Part shown: positions 5,311-42,713 of the stretch, piece after piece | How the letters are laid out: each line of letters opens with the position of its first letter | Position numbering within the stretch: position 1 is the stretch's first letter | Assembly (NCBI GenBank): GCA_964411255.1 | Contig: CAYPKD010000005.1 | Location: 5,547 to 69,546 of the forward strand | Source: an uncultured Gammaproteobacteria bacterium | GTDB lineage: Bacteria > Patescibacteriota > Patescibacteriia > UBA11705 > DATKZF01 | Direction of reading: 5' to 3' | Length of the DNA: 64,000 bases | Notes under the pieces: generated by a model | The model's input: the letters and a program-made list of their open reading frames with translations, nothing else | Told to the model about the DNA's origin: nothing | The model's database searches: none | Position numbers and translations under genes: made by a program

Positions 5311-6105
5311 ATGAAAAAAATAATTATTCCCCTAATTTTTTTAATAATTCTCCTGTCAGGCTGTAGCGTGGAAGTCATAGAACAAGACGATCAGAATGTA
5401 GCGGAAACCACATTTGAATTGTCCAAAGTAGAGTTTACCAACTGGACTCAAATTGATATTGGATTAAACATAAAACAATTTATTGCTGATAATCAAAATA
5501 CAATCACAGTATTGAGGATAGATGAAGATAAATATGAATGGGCGCTAGCTCAGGATAGAAGCAATCCAAAAATTATCAGCCAATGGCAGCAGAAATTGAA
5601 AGCAGAAATTGTAATAAATGGAGGATATTTTGATGAGAATAATGAATCCACTGGATTTTTAAAGATTGAAGGAGAAAAATTTGGGAATTTATCGATTAAT
5701 GGTAAAAACGGATATACGGGAATGTTATTAATAAAAGACAATCAGCCTGAATTGAGATATTTACCTGCAGAAAATTATAAAAATGAAAAAGTCAATTTTG
5801 CATTGCAGACTTTTCCAACATTAATCTATAATAATAAAAGCTTAATAACCGAAGATAGTGGGAAAACTGCGAGAAGAACGGTTTTAGCCCAGACAAAAGA
5901 TAAAAAGACTTATATTATTATTTCAGAATCATTTATCAGTTTATACAAATTAGCTCAATGGCTGGAAAATTCAGAATTAGATATTTCAATTGCTATAAAC
6001 CTGGATGGCGGACCCTCAACAGGTTTGATTGTAAAAGATTATTATAAATCTGATTCGGCTTTAGTACCTAATGTTGTTTATTTAACGGCGGTCGGCAATA
6101 GGTAG
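5311..6105 (+). CDS. Lipoprotein, phosphodiester glycosidase (DUF2233/NAGPA-like) family
   Basis: Signal peptide with lipobox LLSGC. NGGYFDE and NLDGGPSTGL motifs remembered from the family. Confidence 0.75.
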   Translation: MKKIIIPLIFLIILLSGCSVEVIEQDDQNVAETTFELSKVEFTNWTQIDIGLNIKQFIADNQNTITVLRIDEDKYEWALAQDRSNPKIISQWQQKLKAEIVINGGYFDENNESTGFLKIEGEKFGNLSINGKNGYTGMLLIKDNQPELRYLPAENYKNEKVNFALQTFPTLIYNNKSLITEDSGKTARRTVLAQTKDKKTYIIISESFISLYKLAQWLENSELDISIAINLDGGPSTGLIVKDYYKSDSALVPNVVYLTAVGNR

Positions 6106-6158
6106 TAGGCCAGATGTTAATAAGTTTTCGCTATAAAATTAAACTTTTGATATAATAA

Positions 6159-6186
6159 AAGTAGCTTGATGTCAAGTTACTTTTTA
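6159..6186 (+). terminator. Rho-independent terminator
   Basis: AAGTAGCTTGA/TCAAGTTACTT stem (one G-U pair) followed by TTTTT. Confidence 0.6.
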
Positions 6187-6241: not shown

Positions 6242-7327
6242 ATGCCATTGTACAGAATTATTTTAAAAAAAGCATGGAAGATTAGTTTGAAAAATAAATG
6301 GCTTTGGTTTTTAGGATTTTTTGCTGCCTTTTTAAGTAATGAAAGTATTTATGAATCTATCATTGGTGGATTTACAAATAAGTTTCAGGGTCAGGATTTT
6401 GTTTTCCTGACTAAAGACTTTTTAGGTGTTGGGTTATTAGATATTTTTCAATGGTCATTTTTAAAATCATGGTGGACTTCAGGAAGTATTACTTTTACTT
6501 TTTTGTTATTGGTTACAATAGCTTTTATTTGTTTATTATTATTCTTTGTCTTTGTTTCAATTATTTCCCAGGCAGGATTGATCAAGTCAGCAATTGCCAT
6601 TGATGTAAAAAAAACATACAGCCTAAAAAAAGCTTTGCAGGATGGTATTGAGAAGTTTTGGTCTGTATTGGCGCTGAATGTGATTACAAAAGTCGTTTTA
6701 TTTGGAGTATTGGTGATTGTTGCATATTTATTTTCTGCATTAATAAAATTAAATCCAGTTAATTTTATTGATTACGTTTTGTATGTGATCTTTATTGCAT
6801 TATTGGTTTTTGGCGCATTGATAATATATTATTTAACAATTTATGGCACTGCTTTTATAATGCTCAGAGGAAAAAAAGTTTTTGATAGCTTAAGACTTTC
6901 ATGGCACATTTTTGTAAAAAATATATTGATAAATTTAGAAATGGCTTTGATTTTATTTGTGTTCGTAATATTGTTAACCATAGTATATTTAATTGTTCTG
7001 TTTGTATTAGGAACCCCATTAGTTCTGCTATACATGCTTTTAGGCTTTGCTGCAGCAGAAAAAGGGGTGATTATTGTCGCTGCTTTAGCTGTATTACTGT
7101 TTATTATTGTTACAGTATTTTTCGGAGCCTGGTATTCTACATTTCAAATCACATGCTGGGCTTTGCTATTTGAAGAATTGGTGTTGAAAAAAGGACGATC
7201 AAAGTTTCTAAGAGTTTTAGATGCGATTTTTGGTAAAAGTAAAAGGAAAAAATTAAACAAAGGGAAAATAAAAAAAATTGCCCGAAAGACTGTAAAGAAG
7301 GGTAAGAAAAGTTTAAGAAGAAGATAA
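6242..7327 (+). CDS. Polytopic membrane protein with Lys/Arg-rich C-terminal tail
   Basis: Multiple hydrophobic helices. Tail is KSKRKKLNKGKIKKIARKTVKKGKKSLRRR. No recognisable family. Confidence 0.8.
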   Translation: MPLYRIILKKAWKISLKNKWLWFLGFFAAFLSNESIYESIIGGFTNKFQGQDFVFLTKDFLGVGLLDIFQWSFLKSWWTSGSITFTFLLLVTIAFICLLLFFVFVSIISQAGLIKSAIAIDVKKTYSLKKALQDGIEKFWSVLALNVITKVVLFGVLVIVAYLFSALIKLNPVNFIDYVLYVIFIALLVFGALIIYYLTIYGTAFIMLRGKKVFDSLRLSWHIFVKNILINLEMALILFVFVILLTIVYLIVLFVLGTPLVLLYMLLGFAAAEKGVIIVAALAVLLFIIVTVFFGAWYSTFQITCWALLFEELVLKKGRSKFLRVLDAIFGKSKRKKLNKGKIKKIARKTVKKGKKSLRRR

Positions 7328-7343
7328 ATTTATTTATATATAA

Positions 7344-7367
7344 AACAAGGCATAAAGCCTTGTTTTT
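7344..7367 (+). terminator. Rho-independent terminator
   Basis: ACAAGGC-ATAAA-GCCTTGT followed by TTTTT. Confidence 0.7.
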
Positions 7368-7371
7368 GTTT

Positions 7372-7418
7372 TCGTCAAAAGGTAAAAACGAATTCGAATT
7401 CGTTTTTACCTTTTGACG
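7372..7418. terminator. Near-perfect 23-bp-arm palindrome, probable bidirectional terminator
   Basis: CGTCAAAA(A)GGTAAAAACGAATTC|GAATTCGTTTTTACCTTTTGACG. It lies between convergent genes and overlaps the stop codon of the minus-strand methyltransferase. Confidence 0.6.
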
Positions 7419-8554
7419 GCTATTTTCCAAATTGTAATTCTTCGAACCAAATGTTGTCCTGGCCTTGAATAATCAAATTCATTGAGTAAATTATAGCCAA
7501 GCTGTTTTATATTTTCATCAATTGACGTATCGATTATTTGTTTTTTAGATTTTAATTTTGGAAAGATAAATACCACTATATGTTTAGATCCAAGCAATTT
7601 ACTAAATTTTTCAAAGGATTTTAAATATAAAAGCTGAAGTTCTTTTTTTATTTTATTTAAGTCTGCCTGATTTTCTTTACCAGTTAAGGGTTTGCCTAAA
7701 TATGGTTCAGTGACAATTGCTTGAGGTAAAAATTTTAAATCTTTTGCAGTTGCTTTGGTTATGTCTAGCGTTTTCATTTCAATATTTACAGTTAAATTAA
7801 AATTTTCAAGCAGCCAATCAATATTTTTTTGAGCTTTTAGAATAGTTGAAGCATTTATATCACTACCAAAGATGTTTTCATATCCTAATATTGCTGCTTG
7901 CTGCAAAATAGTGCCAAAACCGCAAAATGGATCCCAAATAGTTTTTGTTTTTTGTGGAATTAGATTAATCATCATTTGCGCCACTTTAGGCGGCAGCATA
8001 CCTATCTTGGGATCAAATTCTGGACGGCCATAGTCAAGCTTGTTCCAGAGCTCAAAGTCCTGAACGGCTAAGGTTTTACCAATTAAAAAAATTCCGCGTT
8101 GTTCAAAAATACAAAGCTCAATTCCCTGATCAATCAGCTTATTTTTTTTAACAACGACTGCGGTTAGGTTTTGCGTTTTCGGACTCACAAATCTACATGG
8201 CCGGCTTTGTTTAATAATTTTTTTTATTTCAATGCCCAGTTTGTTTATTTTAAGTTTTTGATTTGTATAGTCGCTTATTCCAAACTGGATCTTGTTTGTT
8301 TGTTTTAAATCAATCGTTTTGATGAGCTCGTTGGCATTGAGTCTCTGAATTTGGCCGATGATTTCACCGAATTTTATTTGACCGCCGAGTCTGTAAAAGA
8401 TTTTGTTATCTATTTTTTCTTTCGATTCAATAATAAAAAGCTCGTTTTGCTGCAAAATTTGCTTAAATTCAATTTTTGTTAAAAACAAAACGTTTTTTAT
8501 CTCAGCTAAAGATAATTGGGGTGTTTTTCCAAAAATAAAATAATATTTATGCAT
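7406..8554 (-). CDS. SAM-dependent RNA/DNA methyltransferase (UPF0020/Trm11-like)
   Basis: DPFCGFGTILQQAA (motif I) and VTEPYLG (motif IV-like). Start moved to ATG 8554 (MHKYYFIFGK..); the 50-aa upstream extension in the track looks non-coding. Confidence 0.8.
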   Translation of the reverse strand: MHKYYFIFGKTPQLSLAEIKNVLFLTKIEFKQILQQNELFIIESKEKIDNKIFYRLGGQIKFGEIIGQIQRLNANELIKTIDLKQTNKIQFGISDYTNQKLKINKLGIEIKKIIKQSRPCRFVSPKTQNLTAVVVKKNKLIDQGIELCIFEQRGIFLIGKTLAVQDFELWNKLDYGRPEFDPKIGMLPPKVAQMMINLIPQKTKTIWDPFCGFGTILQQAAILGYENIFGSDINASTILKAQKNIDWLLENFNLTVNIEMKTLDITKATAKDLKFLPQAIVTEPYLGKPLTGKENQADLNKIKKELQLLYLKSFEKFSKLLGSKHIVVFIFPKLKSKKQIIDTSIDENIKQLGYNLLNEFDYSRPGQHLVRRITIWKIAVKR

Positions 8555-9022: not shown

Positions 9023-11005
9023 ATGAATGTAACAGAATTAGCTAGAATATTAAAAGTTCCGACAAGCGAGCTTTTGGATAAACTGCCAAAGCTTGGTTTT
9101 AGTATTGGGAAAAAAGCGATAAAGGTAAATGATAAATTAGCTCAGCAGATTATGATCGCCTGGCGAGCGCAGGAAAAGCAAAAGGTACAAGAAGAAAAAT
9201 ATTTATCAACAAAAGATCAGGAAGAAGAAAAGGAAGTGATTGAAAAAGGTGAGGTAAATATCCCACCTGTTTTAACGGTAAGAGATTTTTCAAAAATATT
9301 AAATATGCCTGTTACTGAAGTGATTGCAGAATTAATGAAAAATGGAGTCATGGCATCAGTAAACCAGCGTATTGATTATGATACAGCTGCAATTATTGCA
9401 GAAGAATTGGGATTCCAACCAACAGAAGAGGATGTGGAAGCCAAGTTTGAAGTCGATAAATCAGTAAGAGTTAAGGAAGTTTTAGAAAAAGAAAAAAAAT
9501 TATTAGACCGGGCGCCTGTTATTGTAGTTCTTGGCCATGTTGATCATGGAAAGACAAAGCTTTTGGATGCAATAAGAAAAACAAATGTTGTTGAAGGCGA
9601 GGCCGGAGGAATTACCCAACACATTGGTGCTTATCAAGTGAAAAAACAAGGAAGAAAAATTACTTTTATTGATACTCCAGGACATGAGGCATTTACAGCT
9701 ATGCGTTCCCGCGGAGCAAAAATAGCAGACATTGCCATTTTAATAATTGCTGCTGATGATGGCATTAAGCCACAGACCGTTGAAGCGTTAAAAATTGCCC
9801 AGGAAGCGGGTTTGACAATTGTAGTTGCTATCAATAAAATTGACAAGCCCGCTGCAAATGTTGAAAAAGTGAAGCAAGAGCTAACAAAATATAATTTATT
9901 ATCAGAAGAATGGGGAGGCAAAACAATTTGTGTTCCAATATCAGCGAAACAAAATATTGGCATTGATGAATTATTAGAACAGATTTTATTAGTGGCAGAC
10001 ATGGAAGCTGAAAAAATCGTAGCCAATCCGGAAGGACAATTTATTGGAAGTACGATTGAATCGCATGTTGATAAGAACGTAGGACCGGTAGCCACTGTTT
10101 TAGTGAAAAATGGAACGTTAACAAAAGGAGATTTGTTATCTGGTGATGGCGAGTATTTTGGAAAAGTAAGAGCAATGAAAAATTATAGAGGTGAAGAATT
10201 AGACGAGGCCGGCCCATCAGTCCCTGTTCAAATCATCGGTTTTAAGGTGGCGCCAAAAGTAGGAGATGTTATTGAAGTTGGTGGAGATATGAAAAAAGCT
10301 CGAAGAAAAACAGATTATTATAAATTAACAAAAGAAGAGGAATTTGTTAAAACGTCGCATGACTCAGAAGATAATGAAGAAAAAGAAGGCATTACAAAGC
10401 TGGCTATTGTTTTACGAACCGATGTTTTAGGCTCCCAGGAGGCGATTATTGAATCTTTAGAAAAAATTGAAACTGATGATATAAAAATAGACATTGTATC
10501 AAAAGGACTGGGCAGTGTAAATGAATCAGATGTGTTGGCTGCAGAAGCCAGTAATGCAATGCTTTTGGGTTTTAATGTTATTCCTTCAAACGCAGCTGAA
10601 GCACTGGCCAGAGATAAGGGTATTGAAATAAAAACATTTAAAATAATTTATGAAATAATTGATGAGGTGAAGGCACGGCTGAATGAACTTATTAAGGCTG
10701 AATTAATCAGGGAAGATTTAGGTAAATTGGAGGTTTTAGCGTTATTTAAAAAAACAGATAAAGGGCATATCATCGGGGGCAAAGTAATTGAAGGAAAAAT
10801 AGAGGCAAACACCAGTGCGGCAGTAATAAGAAATAAGGCATTTATAGGACTGGGTAAAATTACAGAGCTACAATCGGGAAAACAGGAGGTAAAAGATGTT
10901 CAAAAGGGCCAGGAAGCCGGACTTTCATTTGAAGGACAGGCTGATATTGAAATTGGCGATATTTTAGATATTTATCGTGAGCGGGAACAGAAGAAAGTCA
11001 TTTGA
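9023..11005 (+). CDS. infB: Translation initiation factor IF-2
   Basis: GHVDHGKT, DTPGHEAF and NKID GTPase motifs. One of the few core genes with an SD (AAAGGAG). Confidence 0.97.
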   Translation: MNVTELARILKVPTSELLDKLPKLGFSIGKKAIKVNDKLAQQIMIAWRAQEKQKVQEEKYLSTKDQEEEKEVIEKGEVNIPPVLTVRDFSKILNMPVTEVIAELMKNGVMASVNQRIDYDTAAIIAEELGFQPTEEDVEAKFEVDKSVRVKEVLEKEKKLLDRAPVIVVLGHVDHGKTKLLDAIRKTNVVEGEAGGITQHIGAYQVKKQGRKITFIDTPGHEAFTAMRSRGAKIADIAILIIAADDGIKPQTVEALKIAQEAGLTIVVAINKIDKPAANVEKVKQELTKYNLLSEEWGGKTICVPISAKQNIGIDELLEQILLVADMEAEKIVANPEGQFIGSTIESHVDKNVGPVATVLVKNGTLTKGDLLSGDGEYFGKVRAMKNYRGEELDEAGPSVPVQIIGFKVAPKVGDVIEVGGDMKKARRKTDYYKLTKEEEFVKTSHDSEDNEEKEGITKLAIVLRTDVLGSQEAIIESLEKIETDDIKIDIVSKGLGSVNESDVLAAEASNAMLLGFNVIPSNAAEALARDKGIEIKTFKIIYEIIDEVKARLNELIKAELIREDLGKLEVLALFKKTDKGHIIGGKVIEGKIEANTSAAVIRNKAFIGLGKITELQSGKQEVKDVQKGQEAGLSFEGQADIEIGDILDIYREREQKKVI

Positions 11006-11006
11006 T

Positions 11007-11038
11007 TAAGGTGGTAGGCCGGTAGGATGGTAGTTTAA
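11007..11038 (+). repeat. TAGNNNGG-type 8-mer array
   Basis: TAAGGTGG TAGGCCGG TAGGATGG TAGTTTAA. Confidence 0.6.
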
Positions 11039-11134
11039 TTGAAGAAATATAAACTACTTGCTATTCTATTCTAACTTTTTTAATTTTCAATATTTTGATA
11101 TAATAAAATAGTCTCTAATAAATAAAATAAAAAT

Positions 11135-31943: not shown

Positions 31944-32191
31944 TAGCTTCTCCTTATGGCAGGTTTGTTATTAAGCAAGCGTCCTTGCAAAGCAGGGCTG
32001 TCCAGCAGAGATGACTGGATAGCAAAATACAGGTCCCAAAAGGGAAAATTGTAAATGTGCAGGCCTTCTTGACGTCTCAAGAAAAGGCAAAAATAAATGA
32101 AAAATCACTTGCTTTTGCCTTTTCTTGTTTGAGTAAAGTTAACATTTAATATTGCTAGTGTCAAGCATGTATATAAATAAAATAGCCTTTT

Positions 32192-32351
32192 AAAAAACAG
32201 GCCCGTTAGGCCTGATTTAATCTTTTTCAATTTCGGCTTGTGCCGACCTACTTTTTGCTGCCAAAAAGTAGGCAAAAAGCACTGGGGGGCTTCAAATGCG
32301 AAGCAACGATTAAGTTTGAGGATCGCCCCAAGGGCAATCAGCCCCCCAGAC
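32192..32351 (-). ncRNA. Candidate about 160-nt small RNA (unknown family)
   Basis: Weak promoter (TTGTAA, 15 nt, TAGAAT at 32357-32383). 10-bp closing stem 32282-32291/32340-32349 with two inner hairpins. 11-bp hairpin CCTACTTTTTG/CAAAAAGTAGG. TCGGC-ACAA-GCCGA. Terminator CAGGCC-TAACG-GGCCTG plus TTTTTT. Confidence 0.4.
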
Positions 32352-32385
32352 CCCCGATTCTATTGACGAATTATTTTTTACAAAA

Positions 32386-32412
32386 GACCACCAGTTTCCT
32401 GGTGGCTTTTAT
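32386..32412. terminator. Bidirectional Rho-independent terminator
   Basis: GACCACCAG-TTTC-CTGGTGGC, with T-runs on both strands, directly after the stop of 32409..32744. Confidence 0.7.
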
Positions 32413-33111: not shown

Positions 33112-33140
33112 ACGATATTAGTATAACATATTACATTTTA

Positions 33141-33350
33141 CAAACAAAAAACAGCCTGCCAAAGAGACTGTTTTTTGATATTATCATTGGGATTACTGAT
33201 TTGATATTACTCTAACATCACACTGTTGCCAAGAAAAGATAGTTGGAGAGAGGTTTAAAGAACATCTATCTCTTTTGGCAAGCAGTGTGATGCCAAAGTT
33301 TGTTTACAAACTCCAGAGGAATTAGGAGCAGATGAGTGCTCCTAAAGGAA
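33141..33350 (-). ncRNA. Hairpin-dense 3' UTR or candidate sRNA downstream of the DHH-like gene
   Basis: AGGAGCA-GATGA-GTGCTCCT, AGTTTG-TTTA-CAAACT, a long imperfect hairpin 33216-33242/33266-33292 (about 23 bp), then terminator 33146-33176 with T-run on the minus strand. Confidence 0.4.
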
Positions 33351-33353
33351 AGA

Positions 33354-34317: not shown

Positions 34318-34635
34318 TCAGATTTGAGGTAGCGGCCAAAGCTGACGAAGCTGTTTGTCAAAGAATTCGTAAGCTTCAAAATCAGCACCGCAAAGTGTGA
34401 GTTTTGCAATTACTGGTATGAGTTGATTGTGCTCTGCTTTATTGGTGATTACGACATATGAATGGTAAGCAGAGGGATTGAAGTCATTGATTATGACATA
34501 GTCCAGTTTATCTGGCGGGGTCATCCAGTGTGAATCAATGGTAATAACCTGATCAAACTGAAAGCCTTCTTGTCTGGCTAGATCAATGATTTCAGTTGTG
34601 ATTGAACCGAACCAGAACTGGATCAGTATTTTCAC
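34318..34635 (-). CDS. 105-aa hypothetical protein
   Basis: Start re-assigned to GTG 34635, with AAAGGAG 6 nt upstream. The track's ATG at 34698 has no SD. Confidence 0.6.
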   Translation of the reverse strand: MKILIQFWFGSITTEIIDLARQEGFQFDQVITIDSHWMTPPDKLDYVIINDFNPSAYHSYVVITNKAEHNQLIPVIAKLTLCGADFEAYEFFDKQLRQLWPLPQI

Positions 34636-34739
34636 TGAAAGCTCCTTTTTAAAAAAATTTGAAAAAAAACACTCGAATCTAACAAGAGATCCAAGCATTT
34701 TTTCGTACGAAAGTCCGCTTAAGACTCTCTTTCAAAATT

Positions 34740-35100
34740 TCCAAATAAGTTTTAGAAACTTTGAGAGATCGGAGAGTGCAGTGCTCACTCTCCGATGTCC
34801 GTTGCTTTAACCCGTAGGAGGCAGCTTTAGGTGCCTATGCGTTTTAAGGATGCAAGCGTTAAAGATCTCGGCTTGTTCATCCTGTTACCCATCCCCACTA
34901 GAGGATGTATTGGGTGGTTAGCAGAATTTTATACAGGCGCCTCTGCCAGGGCGCAGATGTAAACACATTGATGACAGATTATTATCTCTTGCCACCAAAT
35001 TAATGTTGTGAAGAGCCTTGTTGCTCTTCTCTGAATTCTGAAAATAAATTTCAGAACTCGGAGAAGCTGAGGATGGTTTGACGCATCCTCAGATATTTCC
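34740..35100. other. ORF-free G+C-rich segment with at least 8 stable hairpins (unknown structured RNA or element)
   Basis: Hairpins at 34768-34796 (11 bp perfect), 34813-34841, 34848-34882, 34888-34914, 34937-34954, 35010-35029, 35031-35061 and 35067-35092. Stops occur in all frames. Confidence 0.4.
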
Positions 35101-35126
35101 TTTCTTAAAATTTGGAGGTGAATAAC

Positions 35127-35567
35127 CTAGGCCTCTTTGTTTTGGCTCTGAGCTTCAGCTTCTGCCTGGGCCTTGGCCTGCTTGAGTGCAGCCTTGGCTT
35201 TGGCTTCAGCTTCGGCCTGCTTGCGCTTTTCAGCGTCAAGTTTGGCCAGACCACCGAGGCCTGTGTTGGGCGCACCACCAGCGCGGCTGGAGCCCTGCCG
35301 TCGGCGCTTGATTTCCAAGCGCTTGAAGCGGGGATCACCATGCTGATGCTTTGCCTGGCGGCGGCGCTGGTTGCGGCGCTGGCGGCGCAGATTACGCTTG
35401 GCGCGAAGTTCATCACGCTCAACCTTGACCTGCGCACGTCGCTCAGCATTCTCAGCTTTGCGAACCAGCTCCTGCCATTTCTTCAGGCCACCATGACGGC
35501 CGCAGAAACCGCGGCCAGCCAGGACATCAGCCGTACACCCGTCATGCTTACACTTTTCCACCTTCAT
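35127..35567 (-). CDS. 146-aa Zn-knuckle (C-x4-C-x10-C-x2-H) plus Arg-rich plus Ala/Lys/Glu-tail protein, probable nucleic-acid binder
   Basis: SD GGGAGG 5 nt before the ATG. Contains EKCKHDGCTADVLAGRGFCGRHGG and RRQRRNQRRRQAKH. Chosen over two overlapping ORFs that lack signals. Confidence 0.6.
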   Translation of the reverse strand: MKVEKCKHDGCTADVLAGRGFCGRHGGLKKWQELVRKAENAERRAQVKVERDELRAKRNLRRQRRNQRRRQAKHQHGDPRFKRLEIKRRRQGSSRAGGAPNTGLGGLAKLDAEKRKQAEAEAKAKAALKQAKAQAEAEAQSQNKEA

Positions 35568-35620
35568 GTGGGCCTCCCTATATAAAAAGATTAATAGACA
35601 TTTTTGTCAAAATTGCTGAA

Positions 35621-35766
35621 AGGACGATGTAGGTGAGATGCCAAAGAGATTTGAAGGGACTTAAATAGATTTATTTCCCTTATCTCAATATGGGCAAAAT
35701 ATGCTCAGCCAATCTAATCGCAAGCGAATAGATCAGCATGAACTTCTCTCTCCTCTACATCGTTCT
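35621..35766. other. About 145-nt three-way-junction-like element
   Basis: AGGACGATGTAGGTGAGA (35621-) pairs with TCTCTCCTCTACATCGTTCT (-35766). Inner hairpins are GAGAT..AAGGGA/TCCCTT..ATCTC and CTAATCG-CAAG-CGAATAG. Confidence 0.4.
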
Positions 35767-35780
35767 GTTCAGAAATTAGA

Positions 35781-35815
35781 CATATAAAAACAGACTGAGA
35801 GAACCATGTCTGTTT
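35781..35815 (-). terminator. Terminator-like hairpin inside the long leader (possible attenuator or sRNA 3' end)
   Basis: Minus strand reads AAACAGAC-ATGGTTCTCTCA-GTCTGTTT followed by TTATAT. Confidence 0.4.
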
Positions 35816-35891
35816 AAAATACAGCTTTATAATCTAGCTGACTCTCTCTCCATGAAATTTGTTAGATTTCAATTTTCGATTTTGATTTAGT

Positions 35892-35920
35892 ATTATAGCA
35901 TATTTTTTTAAAAAAGTCAA
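35892..35920 (-). promoter_or_regulatory. Near-consensus sigma70 promoter reading toward 35567
   Basis: Minus strand reads TTGACT, 17-nt spacer, TATAAT. Confidence 0.55.
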
Positions 35921-36110: not shown

Positions 36111-36545
36111 ATGCAATCATCACCAGAGCTTGGTGTATATGTGGTATTAAAAGACGGTGTAGAAATTGCACGACATCAAAGTGTGGAAAGATTACATGAA
36201 CAATTTCCAGATTGGAATGATGATGAATCAATTAGCATTGTTTATAAGCCATCTGAGGCAGAAAAAGAAATATTACGTGAACTTAAATTATTTCGATCTG
36301 GTGGGAATGTATTAGCAGAGCATGTAGATCCTTTTATTTTACATAGACAATTATTGGAAAAGCATGGAGATAAATGGATAAAAGAATATGAAGGACAATG
36401 GCTGGCAGTTGATGTTGAAAGTGAGCTGGTTATTGATCATGATTGGATGTTGGCTGATTTAGCTGATCGAATTCATGCAAGCAATAAAGATAATAGTAGA
36501 CTAGTCTTATTGTTAGGGATTTCAGATAATGATTTTATAATTTAA
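36111..36545 (+). CDS. 144-aa hypothetical protein
   Basis: SD AAAAGGAGAA. The C-terminal half (YEGQWLAVDVESELVIDHD..) faintly recalls DUF5678-type domains (weak). Confidence 0.6.
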   Translation: MQSSPELGVYVVLKDGVEIARHQSVERLHEQFPDWNDDESISIVYKPSEAEKEILRELKLFRSGGNVLAEHVDPFILHRQLLEKHGDKWIKEYEGQWLAVDVESELVIDHDWMLADLADRIHASNKDNSRLVLLLGISDNDFII

Positions 36546-36595: not shown

Positions 36596-38023
36596 TTAAA
36601 TAGCATTTTTACCTTTAATCACTGCCCATGGAGTTTTTAATAATATCCAAAAATCAAGTTTTAGCGACCAGTTTTCAATATAGAAAATATCCATTTTTGC
36701 TTCTTCATCAAATGGCAAATCGCTTCGACCACTGATTTGAGCAATACCAGTTATTCCAGGTTTTATATCTAAGGTTCGTAATTGCTCTGGCGTATATCTT
36801 TCAACTTCTCTTGGCTGGTGAGGCCGAGGGCCAACTATGCTCATATTTCCGATAAAGACATTGAAAAATTGAGGCAGCTCATCAATGCTGATTTTTCGGA
36901 TAAATCTGCCAACAGCAGTTACGCGGGGATCTTTTTTTATTTTATATAAAGCACCTCTGGACGCCCCTTGTTCTTTTATTAATTTTTTTTCAAGTTCCAA
37001 TGCTTGTTTACTTGATGGTGCATCTGGCCCTGTACTCATATCCCAATACATTGATCTGAATTTGTATACATTGAATTTTTTTCCATTTTGGCCAACTCTT
37101 TCATTCTTATATATAATTGGCCCTTTTGAATTAATTTTTATGGCAATAGCTGTAAATAGCATTATTGGTGAAGATAAGATTATAAAAATAATTGAACTAA
37201 ATAAATCAGAAAATCTTTTAATAATTTTTTTCCAGCCGTCCAGTGGTGTCTTTTTTATTTCAATTACTGGCAGACCAGCAATCATGTGCGTTTCAATGTT
37301 GGTAGCCCTGGCTTCAAAAGGACCGGCAACATATTTAAAAATAATATGATTATATTTGGCAAAATTGATCAATGAAATTGTATCTTTTCTTGAGATATTT
37401 GGATCAGTTTGAATGATTTCATCAATAAATGTTTTTTTATGAAGAGCTTGAATTTTCATTAATGTGTCTTGATTAAACTGTTCAAAATGTTTGAGAATTT
37501 TTAATCCTAATGAAGGTTGTTTTAAGATTGCATTTTTTACAGCATTAGTATTTGAATTTTTTCCAATAATTATAATTTTATGAGTTCCCCAGCCAGTTTT
37601 ATATAAACTATTTTGAACGATTCTAATTATCATTCTGCCAACAATTATGAAAAGGATGCTGAAAAGCCAGGCAAACAAAATAATAAATCTTGATTCAAAA
37701 AGTTCTCTGACAAAGAACATATATAGAATAATTGCAGTCATGCCAGTAGAGCAGGCTAATATAATCCTGGCCATTTCATCAGTGACTTTTGTTTTTTTAA
37801 ATTTATAAAGAGATGACCAAAAAAAGAAAATCAGCCATATTGCAGCCATTACAATTAGTACACCTAAATATTTATTAAATTCCAGATCAAATACAACCGG
37901 CCTTATTTCAGTAACTGATTCAATAAAACGCAGAGAATAAGCGGTAATACCAGCCAATATTAAAAGAAAGTAGTCAGTGACCAGTTTTATAAGTACAAAT
38001 ATTAATTCTGATTTTTTTATCAT
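36596..38023 (-). CDS. Polyprenyl-phosphate sugar phosphotransferase (WbaP/exopolysaccharide priming enzyme family)
   Basis: Multi-TM N-terminus. C-terminal DELPQFFNV..GNMSIVGPRP and KPGITG motifs (Bac_transf). Confidence 0.9.
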   Translation of the reverse strand: MIKKSELIFVLIKLVTDYFLLILAGITAYSLRFIESVTEIRPVVFDLEFNKYLGVLIVMAAIWLIFFFWSSLYKFKKTKVTDEMARIILACSTGMTAIILYMFFVRELFESRFIILFAWLFSILFIIVGRMIIRIVQNSLYKTGWGTHKIIIIGKNSNTNAVKNAILKQPSLGLKILKHFEQFNQDTLMKIQALHKKTFIDEIIQTDPNISRKDTISLINFAKYNHIIFKYVAGPFEARATNIETHMIAGLPVIEIKKTPLDGWKKIIKRFSDLFSSIIFIILSSPIMLFTAIAIKINSKGPIIYKNERVGQNGKKFNVYKFRSMYWDMSTGPDAPSSKQALELEKKLIKEQGASRGALYKIKKDPRVTAVGRFIRKISIDELPQFFNVFIGNMSIVGPRPHQPREVERYTPEQLRTLDIKPGITGIAQISGRSDLPFDEEAKMDIFYIENWSLKLDFWILLKTPWAVIKGKNAI

Positions 38024-38031
38024 AAATTTGT

Positions 38032-38071
38032 TAGGCTGGTAGATCGGTAGGTTAGTAGGTTGGTAGATTTA
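38032..38071 (+). repeat. TAGNNNGG-type 8-mer array
   Basis: TAGGCTGG TAGATCGG TAGGTTAG TAGGTTGG TAGATTTA. Confidence 0.65.
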
Positions 38072-38151
38072 AAAAAAATTGGAAGAAGGACGCTACTAAT
38101 ATTATTGCAATTTTTTGTAAAAATTTCAATAATAACATCCACCTTCCAATT

Positions 38152-38762
38152 GATCCAAACAGGTCTATAAGCCGAATTCTGTCCCACCAGAGGCGGGGAT
38201 GATCATCTATCTAGTCCCGAGATTACTCTCGGGATCAAGCGAGCTACCAAACTTGCTCTTGCACCAGATAAGGTTTACCACCACCTAATGTTACCATTAG
38301 GCAAGAGAAGTATAAATTAAATAGTCACGTGAACCATTTAACTTTTTTCCTTCTCACTTTTCACCTTTCACCACTGCTACGCAGTGGAATTTCTAAATCC
38401 TAATTTTTTAAACTCTGAACAATTTTCAAATTTTCGAAAGGTTTTAAACATTAGAACATTTGAATTTCGAATTTGTTTAGAATTTCGTATTTCGAATTTA
38501 GCGCTTCCATTGCGCAACAATGGCTAGTATAGTCTCTGTGGCACTGGCTGTCGTCTAGGTTTATTAATTATCCTAGAATCGCCTGGGAGTTACCCAGTAT
38601 CATACCGCAGATTACGCTGATTAGCCGATTACGCAGATTGCAGGACTTTTTTTTATCAGCGTAATCAGCGTAATCTACGGTCAGGTGTTCGGACTTTCCT
38701 CCGGCCTACGCTTTTCACTTTGTTCAAAGCTTCGGCTGGCGATCATCCAACCTATTTGGATC
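38152..38762 (-). ncRNA. rnpB: RNase P RNA (bacterial type A core) with large insertions, about 611 nt
   Basis: Minus strand has GGAGGAAAGTCCGAACAC (CR-I/P4 5'), GTGCCACAGAGAC, GGTAAACC and ACAGAATTCGGCTTATAG (CR-V/P4 3'). P1 pairs GATCCAAATAGGT with ACCTGTTTGGATC; P2 pairs GGATGATC with GATCATCC. Confidence 0.88.
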
Positions 38763-41220: not shown

Positions 41221-42198
41221 TTATTTTACTAATCCGATTTGTTCTTTTACCCGTTCCAATGTTTGTGAAGCAACTTTTTGTGCGTTTTCTGCTCCTTTTT
41301 CTAAAATTTTTAAAACCTTTTTATCATCAAGTTCATTTATTTTATCTTGAATAGGATTTAGAAATTCAATAATTTTTTCAGCTAAGTCTTTTTTAAAATT
41401 ACCATAACCTTTGCCTGCATATTTTTTTTCAATTGATTTGATTTCTTCGCCAGTTACTAAGTGGTAAATGGTTAACAGATTGGAAACCGCAGGTTTATCA
41501 TCAGCATATTTTATTTCAGATCCAGAATCAGTGACTGCTTTCATTATTTTTTTGCGAATTAAATCTGGCTGATCTGTTATTGCAATATAATTATATTCTG
41601 AAGCGGCAGATTTGCTCATCTTTTGTGTTGGGTCATCGAGCCCCATCAAGCGGGCACCATGTTCTGGCACAAAAGTTTTCGGTACTTTTAGAGCATCCCC
41701 ATACAAATTATTAAACTTCTTGGCAACTGTTCTGGTTAATTCAACATGCTGCATCTGATCTTCACCTACTGGGACAACATCAGTGTCATAAAGCAAAATA
41801 TCTGCAGCCATTAGTACTGGATAGGTGAAAAGACCGGCATTGATATTTTCCTTATGTTTTTGTGCCTTGTCTTTAAATTGAGTCATCCGCTCTAATTCAG
41901 CAATCGGAGTAATAGTGCTTAGGATCCAGGACAGCTCAGTATGTTCAGATAAATGTGATTGAATAAATAACGTGCATTTTTTTGGATCAAGTCCAGCAGC
42001 AATAAATATTTTTGCCAGATTCAAAGTATTTTGTCTTAATATTTCAGGTTGCTGATAAACTGTTAAGGCATGGAGATCAACTATACAAAAATAAGAATCA
42101 TATTCATTTATGAAGTTAAGCCAGTTTTTTATTGCGCCAAAGTAATTTCCGAGATGAATTATACCGCTTGGCTGGATTCCACTTAAAATTCTTTTCAT
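41221..42198 (-). CDS. trpS: Tryptophan--tRNA ligase
   Basis: GIQPSGIIHLGNY (HIGH-type) and KMSKS signatures, 325 aa. Confidence 0.95.
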   Translation of the reverse strand: MKRILSGIQPSGIIHLGNYFGAIKNWLNFINEYDSYFCIVDLHALTVYQQPEILRQNTLNLAKIFIAAGLDPKKCTLFIQSHLSEHTELSWILSTITPIAELERMTQFKDKAQKHKENINAGLFTYPVLMAADILLYDTDVVPVGEDQMQHVELTRTVAKKFNNLYGDALKVPKTFVPEHGARLMGLDDPTQKMSKSAASEYNYIAITDQPDLIRKKIMKAVTDSGSEIKYADDKPAVSNLLTIYHLVTGEEIKSIEKKYAGKGYGNFKKDLAEKIIEFLNPIQDKINELDDKKVLKILEKGAENAQKVASQTLERVKEQIGLVK

Positions 42199-42205
42199 AT
42201 ATTTT

Positions 42206-42245
42206 TAGATTGGTAGATCGGTAGATTTGTAGATTGGTAGTTAGA
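42206..42245 (+). repeat. TAGNNNGG 8-mer array, left flank of the four-helix-bundle pseudogene
   Basis: TAGATTGG TAGATCGG TAGATTTG TAGATTGG TAGTTAGA. Confidence 0.8.
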
Positions 42246-42246
42246 A

Positions 42247-42629
42247 TTATTTATTATTTAATTCTTTAGTTTTTGAATTTGTCATTTTATTCAACATTCG
42301 CATGACTTCATTTAATAAATTATCAACTTTTAAAAAATTTAATTTTTTTCCAAATGGTAGACGATTGGCAATTTCTATTTGAGTTTCTAATTCTGCCCCG
42401 GAAGCATATGCTACTATTAAAAAGTGACGATATTCTTTTATTGTTAGTCGTTTTTTTCCTTCAGCGATATTCGAGGGGATAGATATAGCTGTTTTTCGTG
42501 TATGTTGAATTAATCCAAATGATTCAATTTTCGGATATTATTCTGTTAATTCATAGACCGCGACAACTAAATCCATTGCTTTTTGCCAAACAATTAATTT
42601 CCGGTAATCCCCAGGTTGATTAATTTCAT
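42247..42629 (-). pseudogene. Four-helix-bundle protein (23S rRNA intervening-sequence protein family), disrupted
   Basis: ..YRKLIVWQKAMDLVVAVYELTE*YPKIESFGLIQHTRKTAISIPSNIAEGKKR..YASGAELETQIEIA. In-frame TAA at 42538-42540, plus a frame offset between the ATG (42629) and the conserved frame. Confidence 0.75.
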
Positions 42630-42673
42630 TTTAAAATAATTTCCCATGTACTTTTATCCTATCATTTAAATCT

Positions 42674-42713
42674 CTACTGATCTACCAATCTACCGCCCTA
42701 CCGAACTAACTTA
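42674..42713 (+). repeat. Inverted partner array (CCNNNCTA words), right flank of the pseudogene
   Basis: CTACTGAT CTACCAAT CTACCGCC CTACCGAA CTAACTTA, the reverse complement of the TAGNNNGG family. Confidence 0.8.

Follow-up and report, generated by a model that had tools for sequence, protein, structure and literature searches.

A candidate large structured RNA downstream of a zinc-knuckle, arginine-rich protein gene in Patescibacteria

Large bacterial RNAs that combine a complex fold with no known function are rare, and those that have been characterised (OLE, GOLLD/ROOL and HEARO/omega RNA) revealed unexpected biology. OLE RNA is co-transcribed with the gene of a small dedicated protein in a housekeeping gene neighbourhood, and its function is unclear. 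Here we describe a non-coding block at positions 34740-35100 of a 64,000-nucleotide (nt) stretch of Patescibacteria DNA (hereafter the window, which denotes the whole stretch that was analysed). The block is the tail of a real, conserved and heavily folded RNA of the minus strand, whose structure exceeds chance. Like OLE RNA and its protein OapA in the Bacillota, it is large, intricately folded and lineage-restricted, adjoins a small dedicated protein gene and has mostly housekeeping genes around it, and OLE RNA with its adjacent partner gene is its closest analogue in architecture. The resemblance is architectural only: the present RNA has no match in Rfam, its protein gene precedes the RNA, and its length varies 3.5-fold among species. 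The protein, moreover, looks soluble in its AF2 model, a zinc knuckle with an arginine-rich helix, and unlike a membrane protein.

Further described systems resemble the locus in part. As in the lambda N/nut (boxA-boxB) system, a small arginine-rich protein is found with hairpins predicted on the same transcript and with downstream terminators that stand in the way of later genes. Unlike that system, the locus has no conserved boxA and no homology to N, its protein carries a zinc knuckle, its RNA is 10-30 times the size of a nut site, and its context is chromosomal and syntenic, phage and viral searches being negative. EAR RNA, which is about 120 nt long and associated with terminator read-through, is likewise a structured RNA between genes of a polysaccharide or glycosyltransferase cluster, in its case the eps operons of Bacillales; however, no covariance-model match to it was obtained here, EAR has no linked protein gene, and the later sub-operons of the present cluster have promoter-like sites of their own. 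RNAIII of Staphylococcus aureus is also a long multi-hairpin transcript that ends in a terminator, encodes a small protein and has untranslated parts that are more conserved, but there is no homology, the open reading frame (ORF) here encodes 146 amino acids (aa) and is under clear protein-level selection, and no target-pairing motifs were identified. The sponge RNAs CsrB and RsmZ resemble the RNA in that the number of a repeated hairpin module varies by species, which is consistent with several sites for one protein. In contrast to them, it has no GGA loop motifs, its repeats are stems (GGAUG/CAUCC and CUCUC/GAGAG) and whole modules, and it is not a free-standing small RNA gene.

The initial annotation had described the block as G+C-rich, free of ORFs, studded with eight stable hairpins and set between two minus-strand genes, and in these respects it was accurate. 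All eight hairpins are present where it placed them, the one at 34768-34796 as an 11-bp perfect stem and the others with 5-12 pairs on one or both strands. The G+C content is 0.44, compared with 0.348 over the window as a whole; each of the six frames holds 4-9 stops in a mixture of TAA, TAG and TGA, with a longest open run of 56 codons; and the neighbours on either side are the gene of the arginine-rich protein and a 105-aa gene, both on the minus strand. The boundaries, by contrast, had been drawn too narrowly. The element runs from about 35092 to 34655, and three further hairpins and the terminator (34703-34662) belong to it beyond the left limit of the block, a 3' terminator module at 34662-34764 having been missed.

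Folded on the minus strand, positions 34700-35126 reach a minimum free energy (MFE) of -145.7 kcal/mol (z = -6.88), and on the plus strand -137.7 kcal/mol (z = -5.15); on either strand 0/100 dinucleotide shuffles fold as well. A scan of both strands of the whole window in 200-nt segments (638 segments, mean z -0.55, standard deviation 1.57) gave z-scores of -4.6 and -4.5 for two minus-strand segments over the block, which are among the most negative of the 638. The same scan gave -7.1 for RNase P RNA and -6 to -7.6 for several other intergenic regions.

The RNA was compared across four loci, the window and three metagenomic relatives:

Window (ENA contig k141_1433182; the stretch derives from a metagenomic contig of 389 kb), the reference: RNA of about 470 nt, identical on five contigs (L001-L005).
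L006 (JGI contig Ga0180438_10013499), the closest relative, flanking proteins 71-92% identical: RNA of about 480 nt at 6997-7480, 84.9% identical including gaps.
L015 (JGI contig Ga0117909_1033632), syntenic (AdSS, RNase P RNA, Bac_transf), with a homolog of the arginine-rich protein that is 29-34% identical: RNA of about 830 nt at 5355-6185.
L018 (JABAHP010001172.1), found by a DNA pattern of the 3' end: RNA of about 1620 nt at 109-1730, G+C content 0.53.

The RNA holds a syntenic position in all relatives and is constantly linked to the ORF. It starts 20-34 nt past the stop codon of the arginine-rich protein gene in the window, L006 and L015, and in L018 it sits between the end of a basic ORF and a homolog of the 105-aa gene. 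The gene that follows it differs, being the 105-aa gene in the window and L018 and an extra 61-aa gene in L006; L015 has no adjacent co-oriented gene for about 390 nt, and a second hairpin/terminator intervenes there.

The comparison of the window with L006 is the most detailed. The RNAalifold consensus of the two contains 128 pairs, every one of which is retained in both (128/128). Only 10 of the 247 paired columns differ (4%), all of them in a pair-preserving way, compared with 41 of the 182 unpaired columns (22.5%), and the 14 gap columns are all unpaired; the contrast between stems and loops has a Fisher p of 5e-9. Because four-fold degenerate sites of the flanking genes are 46-71% identical between the same two loci, the RNA evolves far slower than neutral sites. 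The distant relatives are structured still more strongly than the window, with z-scores of -8.1 (sense) and -6.8 (antisense) in L015 and of -11.0 and -10.9 for the two halves of the L018 RNA.

This pattern bears on the possibility that the block is the remnant of a decayed gene, which the initial annotation had named as an outcome that would overturn its view, or a region coding under an alternative code. The block is indeed G+C-rich like the adjoining ORF, and some contigs carry spurious gene calls over it, in 58-aa, 114-aa and 126-aa versions. But all three stop types close all six frames and reassignment of a stop codon would rescue none of them, as had been pointed out from the start; the indels that separate L006 from the window measure 1, 2 and 9 nt and lie in loops; substitutions track stems and loops, not codon position; and no ORF inside the RNA of the window, L015 or L018 has a Pfam match. 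Such an origin, extremely improbable in our judgement, is effectively excluded.

The structured domain comprises the following parts, all on the minus strand:

34655-35126: whole structured 3' RNA domain, from the stop codon of the ORF to the end of the terminator U-tract, about 470 nt.
35067-35092: hairpin H1, CUGAGGAUG / CAUCCUCAG, 34 nt past the stop codon and kept in 4/4 species.
35026-35066: long hairpin H2 of 17-18 bp, CUUCUCCGAGUUCUGAAA / UUUCAGAAUUCAGAGAAG, kept in 4/4 species, with a freely variable loop.
35010-35029: hairpin H3, GAAGAGC-AACAAG-GCUCUUC, in the window and L006 only.
34968-34998: variable hairpin region H4, where the alignments show L006 to differ by indels and many substitutions.
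34808-34954: central domain with H5 (34954-34937), H6 (34915-34887), H7 (34883-34847) and H8 (34839-34813), lineage-specific, from RNAalifold and constrained folds.
34768-34796: hairpin H9, 11 bp and perfect, from RNAalifold and folding.
34732-34764: hairpin H10 of the UCUCAA...UUGAGA type, one copy here and three to four in L018.
34701-34729: hairpin H11 (34729-34709) and a UUUC-GUAC-GAAA mini-hairpin, from the four-species alignment.
34662-34703: intrinsic terminator followed by a run of 8 U, from the terminator scan, about 20 nt before the 105-aa gene.

Comparative folding, which the initial annotation had proposed as a check, bears out the fold in the helices that can be aligned among all four species. 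In 41 pairs of H1, H2, H11 and the terminator, 98.2% of the cells are paired and 11 pairs have changed on both sides; 0/500 shuffles reached these values, and sliding one partner by 1-3 columns lowers the pairing to 25-49%. Both-side changes affect 3/9 pairs of H1, with 100% of cells paired, and 6/17 pairs of H2, with 95.6% paired. The segment GACUUUCGUACGAAAAA of the H11/mini-hairpin region is invariant in 4/4 species, while the last pair of H11 is U-G, C-G or U-A depending on the species. At the 3' end a stable minus-strand stem-loop precedes a U-tract that is found in all four species. The 5' arm of this terminator, GCUUGGAUCUC, is invariant; its 3' arm drifts with pairing retained, and 10/10 core pairs survive through G-U, G-C and U-A exchanges.

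The initial annotation had assigned no strand; these exchanges identify it. Minus is taken as the sense strand because of the G-U pairs in the conserved helices and the better terminator on that strand. The helices H1, H2, H11 and the terminator show 3 mismatches in four species when read in the minus sense but 22 when read in the plus sense (21 G-U cells), and the terminator alone has no mismatch on the sense strand against 2-4 per species on the opposite one. A functional transcript of the plus strand, that is, an antisense RNA to the 3' untranslated region (UTR), could draw on the strong plus-strand fold (z = -5.15, as given above), on a terminator-like hairpin with a weak T-run at 35067-35092, and on the helix at 34813-34841, which pairs better on the plus strand (10 pairs, -11.0 kcal/mol) than on the minus strand (5 pairs, -5.6 kcal/mol). 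That helix, however, lies in the non-conserved central domain, the 22 mismatches are A-C oppositions in the conserved helices, the stronger terminator with its U-tract is on the minus strand, and no promoter-like site was found on the plus strand of the region. A plus-strand product is very improbable, and we regard it as effectively excluded. It is, on the other hand, highly probable that the locus makes a real, selected, structured RNA of the minus strand that forms part of the unit described below.

When the window is compared with L015 and L018, the RNA can be aligned at its two ends only, and its middle has no detectable similarity. The alignable 5' end consists of H1 and H2, and the 3' end of the 3' half of H10, H11, GACUUUCGUACGAAAAA, the terminator arm GCUUGGAUCUC and the U-tract. 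The conserved core of the family is the 5' hairpins H1 and H2 together with the 3' module of H10, H11 and the terminator. The RNAs would form a lineage-restricted family with constant 5' (H1, H2) and 3' (H10, H11, mini-hairpin, terminator) modules and a modular middle. Recurrent stems (GGAUG/CAUCC and CUCUC/GAGAG) and hairpin modules differ in copy number. The middle parts of L015 and L018 contain internal duplications, and the middle appears to have been enlarged by internal duplication, to totals of about 830 and 1620 nt in these relatives.

For the central domain the initial annotation had suggested a cloverleaf-like core in which TTTAACCC and GGGTGGTTA (UAACC/GGUUA) close a four-way junction. 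That junction can form, and a lone C-to-U change in L006 would keep its closing helix as a G-U pair, but it is not the best fold and is missing from the distant homologs. Unconstrained folding favours a three-way junction that is held together by the long-range helix AGGCGCCUGU / AUAGGC(A/G)CCU, in which an A-to-G change in L006 repairs a C-A mismatch. The unconstrained MFE of the three-way junction is -46.6 kcal/mol in the window and -59.8 kcal/mol in L006, against -45.1 and -43.2 kcal/mol when the four-way junction is enforced. Neither L015 nor L018 has a sequence match to the central domain, and the cloverleaf is limited to the window and L006; being energetically disfavoured in L006 and outside the conserved family core, the four-way junction was rejected as a conserved core. 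As a lead only, the H5 loop GGCAGA (AGCAGA in L006) could form a pseudoknot with UCUGCU at 34926-34920, as read from the sequences. This candidate fits the single substitution in the loop, and a duplicated module of L015 shows a similar loop-to-downstream pairing. The long-range helix is a competing structure.

The RNA follows an ORF with its own promoter and leader, and the elements around it, all on the minus strand, are:

35892-35920: promoter, TTGACT, a 17-nt spacer and a TG-extended TATAAT, with 11/12 consensus matches in the promoter scan.
35568-35885: structured 5' UTR of about 318 nt, from the alignment of the window, L006 and L015.
35127-35567: gene of the 146-aa protein, in which an N-terminal zinc knuckle (C-x4-C-x10-C-x2-H) precedes long arginine/lysine-rich helices.
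34318-34635: downstream 105-aa gene with a GTG start and an AAGGAG ribosome-binding site, starting about 20 nt past the U-tract of the terminator.

The -35 and -10 hexamers of the promoter are invariant in the window, L006 and L015. So are the 5' UTR blocks GGAGAGAGAGTCAGCT, ACGATGTAGAGGAGAGAGAA, AGTCCCTTCAAATCTCTTT and CTACATCGT, and a further listing of invariant blocks in the same three species gives GGAGAGAGAGUCAGCU, ACGAUGUAGAGGAGAGAGAA, AGUCCCUUCAAAUCUCUUU and CUACAUCGU. Identity of the 5' UTR is 92% to L006 and 66% overall to L015; the ORF is 56% identical to that of L015 in nucleotides and its product about 30%. On the minus strand the promoter scan found no promoter-like site between the ORF and the RNA, and none between the terminator and the 105-aa gene. 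Since no promoter was found between the RNA and the upstream ORF, the two probably share a transcript some 1.23 kb long, with the RNA as its 3' part. The locus would then probably be read as a single minus-strand unit of 5' UTR, ORF, structured 3' domain and terminator.

Within the 5' UTR, a terminator-like hairpin lies at 35814-35786 (minus sense; ACAGAC-loop-GUCUGU, then U5). Its loop is conserved as UUCUCU and complements the invariant GAGAGAGAG farther upstream, and pair 5 of its stem changes from A-U to G-C in L015; it could be a pseudoknot or a leader attenuator. Pairing between the 5' UTR and the 3' RNA (AAGUCC/GGACUU and UCUCUUU/AAAGAGA, checked by eye) was discarded since it is not conserved in L015, and read-through of the in-frame stop into the RNA was discarded since a 2-nt indel in L006 breaks the frame. 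A 126-aa version of the 105-aa ORF was also rejected: its first 21 codons are spurious and are not conserved in L006, where another gene is inserted.

The place of the terminator suggests that the RNA might be a cis-regulatory leader or attenuator of the downstream genes (105-aa, 281-aa and others), in which a ligand or protein switches the terminator, as in a riboswitch, a T-box or a protein-dependent attenuator. In the window, L006 and L018 a gap of 20-58 nt, free of promoter-like sites, separates the terminator from the next co-directional gene, and H3 overlaps the base of H2, which makes the two hairpins mutually exclusive. In addition, all four species share an invariant terminator 5' arm and, before it, about 17 invariant nt, while the 3' arm drifts, as would be expected if the 5' arm had a second pairing partner or a binding factor. 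However, the terminator-before-gene arrangement holds in 3/4 loci and is missing in L015, where the RNA is retained although no co-oriented gene follows for about 390 nt. No conserved antiterminator or other alternative partner of the invariant arm was found. An arm of H7 was tried as antiterminator and rejected: it forms only a weak helix of 5+4 bp with the terminator arm, and L006 has not retained the complementary loop sequence. The central domain, which would have to bear the aptamer, is not conserved, so that the members share no riboswitch or attenuator core: the window, L015 and L018 have no similarity in it. Finally, at 470-1620 nt the RNA is far longer than known leaders, and it matches no riboswitch or T-box model. 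We consider a leader unlikely.

A shared transcript would equally suit a passive 3' UTR, in which stabilising hairpins and a terminator protect the message for an abundant basic protein against 3' exonucleases. The sequences would then have no specific function, and the size differences would arise by neutral duplication. Besides the likely co-transcription with the ORF and the terminal terminator, the unconserved middle, the 3.5-fold variation in length through duplications and the many structured intergenic regions agree with this. Yet 0.5-1.6 kb of G+C-rich non-coding DNA is maintained in a reduced genome of about 35% G+C, some 120 nt (H1-H3) and the 3' module are invariant to a degree that far exceeds structural need, and conservation between the window and L006 extends to the loops of H1 and H3. 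A purely passive role is improbable.

The unit lies in a co-directional cluster with genes for a Bac_transf priming transferase, three GT4 proteins and a DUF4012 protein. EAR RNA and the RfaH/LoaP systems act in polysaccharide operons, and we also weighed processive antitermination of the lambda N/nut or EAR/put type, in which the arginine-rich protein, or the RNA by itself, would use the hairpins to load onto RNA polymerase and allow read-through of this and later terminators in the glycosyltransferase/cell-envelope cluster. The small arginine-rich protein, the hairpins directly past its gene and the several internal terminators in the downstream intergenic regions of the cluster are what such a system would need. 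On the other side, the boxA-like CUUUAAC occurs only in the H7 loop of the window and not in L006, L015 or L018, neither EAR nor any other Rfam model matches the RNA, the protein matches no N-protein or NusG family (no N family in Pfam or NCBIfam), and the downstream intergenic regions have promoter-like sites of their own past the terminators, so read-through is not required. Both forms of this explanation are quite improbable.

Known families were searched widely. The initial annotation, which had matched the block to no riboswitch, ribozyme (hammerhead, twister), group II domain V, tmRNA or SRP consensus, had recommended a search of Rfam; neither Rfam 15 nor ARAGORN found a class for it. 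The Rfam 15 set contains 4227 covariance models, including OLE, EAR, GOLLD, ROOL, HEARO, raiA, 6S, SRP, tmRNA, T-box, riboswitches and ribozymes, and at gathering scores it yielded only the RNase P RNA at 38152-38758 in the window. In a permissive scan of 34500-35300 the best model was Ocean-VII, which scored 16.8 bits where its gathering score is 53.5; microRNA models came next. The Ocean-VII match, on H3 (E = 0.036), was set aside: it is below threshold and falls partly in the H2 stem, H3 is missing from L015 and L018, and a literature search for it was empty. In L006, L015 and L018 the scan gave only RNase P and microRNA noise. ARAGORN found no tRNA or tmRNA anywhere in the window. There was no blastn match of the RNA in phage and plasmid collections, no match in pattern scans of viral contigs and no repeat family of the dispersed (REP- or MITE-like) kind that involves 34650-35130; patterns of the H10 type occur elsewhere in the 64-kb window only at chance level (4 found, 2.9 expected). 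Homology to an OLE-type ribonucleoprotein is likewise absent, with no Rfam match for the RNA and no Pfam or NCBIfam family for the neighbouring protein.

By codon pattern, the 146-aa ORF itself is a real coding gene under protein-level selection: identity to L006 is 69% at third codon positions and about 90% at positions 1 and 2. In its AF2 model (mean pLDDT 81) long basic helices come after a small zinc knuckle of beta-hairpin form. The protein is rare, with two clusters among the 5.8 billion proteins searched. When 1.84 billion representatives were searched exhaustively with HMMER, eight proteins reached E <= 0.001, namely the same close relative and otherwise remote ones; most of the eight share C-x3-GC...GRG[YF]CGRHGG, and some also a second motif, GAPxGTGLxxLAKLD. 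The zinc-knuckle motif resembles the repeat unit of DUF3761 (C-DG-S-S...G-C-RHGGV-W). One remote match, P0124, has four DUF3761-like repeats and matches Pfam PF12587 at E = 4e-47; the protein of the window is below every Pfam threshold. Distant homologs on short contigs likewise lie within long structured sequence that is poor in ORFs: in L020, 900 nt separate a consensus promoter from the ORF (z = -7.9), and in L019, 730 nt follow the ORF (z = -5.2). The homolog loci L014, L016, L019 and L020 have no sequence match to the RNA of the window.

The 281-aa protein of the neighbourhood has homologs that their sources label Patescibacteria or Moranbacteria. A link between its gene and the RNA was considered and dropped: it has more than 140 homologs, and the two loci examined (L011 and L012, L013) differ in context and have no RNA match. 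Scans of genome contigs with the 281-aa protein and with the alignment of the arginine-rich protein gave no confirmed further homolog, and sequence searches of the PDB with the 281-aa and 105-aa proteins gave no match.

The explanation that we put first, and regard as evenly balanced between right and wrong, is that the element constitutes the 3' domain of a structured transcript some 1.23 kb long, belongs to a lineage-restricted family outside Rfam and acts as the RNA partner of the protein encoded upstream. The RNA would be made in cis with a very basic zinc-knuckle protein encoded just before it, and could be the binding partner or scaffold of that arginine-rich protein in a ribonucleoprotein or autoregulatory complex. 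The repeated modules and recurrent stems might offer several binding sites, and the terminal terminator might set how far transcription extends into the promoter-less downstream genes. The mechanism with a protein partner is, taken by itself, a tentative proposal.

Several points weigh against the explanation as a whole. Other intergenic regions of the genome are also strongly structured and conserved, and high structure is therefore not unique to the locus. Sequence conservation is lacking in the middle part of the RNA, so much of the 360-nt block, the cloverleaf included, may be dispensable. The helix arms for the four-species pair count were chosen by eye, which biases the count toward pairing, and the four species amount effectively to three divergent lineages, which makes the covariation statistics weak. 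As for the protein, Foldseek against the PDB returns only insignificant matches to A20/AN1 zinc fingers, and Pfam only a consistent sub-threshold match to Zf_WRKY19.

Other elements of the window deserve mention. A second conserved non-coding element lies at 33112-33353 (minus sense), with counterparts at 9007-9267 of L006 and 6300-6385 of L015. It consists of a long hairpin of about 90 nt with the core CUUGCCAAAAG-GAUAGAUGUUCUUUAAACCUCUCUCCAACUAUC-UUUUCUUGGCAAC, then a terminator and the promoter-like TGTTATACT (z = -7.3). Identity to the L006 counterpart is about 95%. In L015 the element stands directly past the RNA unit, and there its core is about 90% identical; its loop CCUCUCUCC is complementary to GGAGAGAG blocks of the 5' UTR of that unit. 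The 465-nt intergenic region at 31944-32408 (minus sense, between a 111-aa and a 570-aa gene; z = -7.7) contains two terminator-like hairpins, a G+C-rich hairpin GGGGGUCUGGGGGGC...GCCCCCCAG and a TTGACA promoter-like site, and has no Rfam match at gathering score. A 144-aa ORF on the plus strand (36111-36545), between the Bac_transf gene and the promoter of the unit, does not evolve in a coding-like manner relative to L006: identity is 87.6% at third positions, about 90% at positions 1 and 2 and only 83% in amino acids. It has no Pfam or NCBIfam match and is absent from L015.

The class A RNase P RNA at 38152-38758 (minus strand) measures 607 nt against a model of 367 positions and hence has large insertions; its orthologs are 480 nt long in L015 and 469 nt in L006, and the gene call of 70 aa within the L015 copy is probably spurious. 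Repeats with an 8-nt period, GGTAGATC / GGTAGGTT / GGTAGATT, occur at gene ends at 38020-38074, 42194-42248 and 11003-11041, with an inverted copy at 42664-42708; they correspond to the repeat families D1, I7 and I23. L015 has analogous 8-nt repeats around genes with other sequences, GCTGATTG / CAATCAA and TAGGCAGT. A perfect palindrome of 23+23 nt without a spacer, CGTCAAAAGGTAAAAACGAATTC / GAATTCGTTTTTACCTTTTGACG, at 7373-7418 has the most negative fold z-score of the window, -7.6.

Patescibacteria have tiny genomes with little non-coding DNA. The RNA is likely to be important for its host, because 0.5-1.6 kb of G+C-rich non-coding DNA is kept in such genomes beside the gene of a basic protein. 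It is a candidate for a new class of large structured RNA, with four species so far; we do not yet rank it as a new category because it is seen in those four species only and its role is inferred. It is possible, if somewhat doubtful, that it represents an undescribed class of large (0.47-1.6 kb), modular Patescibacteria RNA that is co-transcribed with, and bound by, its own zinc-knuckle/arginine-rich protein. If so, it would be a new bacterial ribonucleoprotein of the rank of OLE/OapA, possibly acting on read-through in a cell-envelope gene cluster, and, given the protein homologs of L019 and L020 within structured ORF-free stretches, this would be a general architecture and not a local oddity. 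The locus offers a concrete, testable pair of RNA and protein, and the anchors H1/H2 and GACUUUCGUACGAAAAA-N-GCUUGGAUCUC can be used to find further members.

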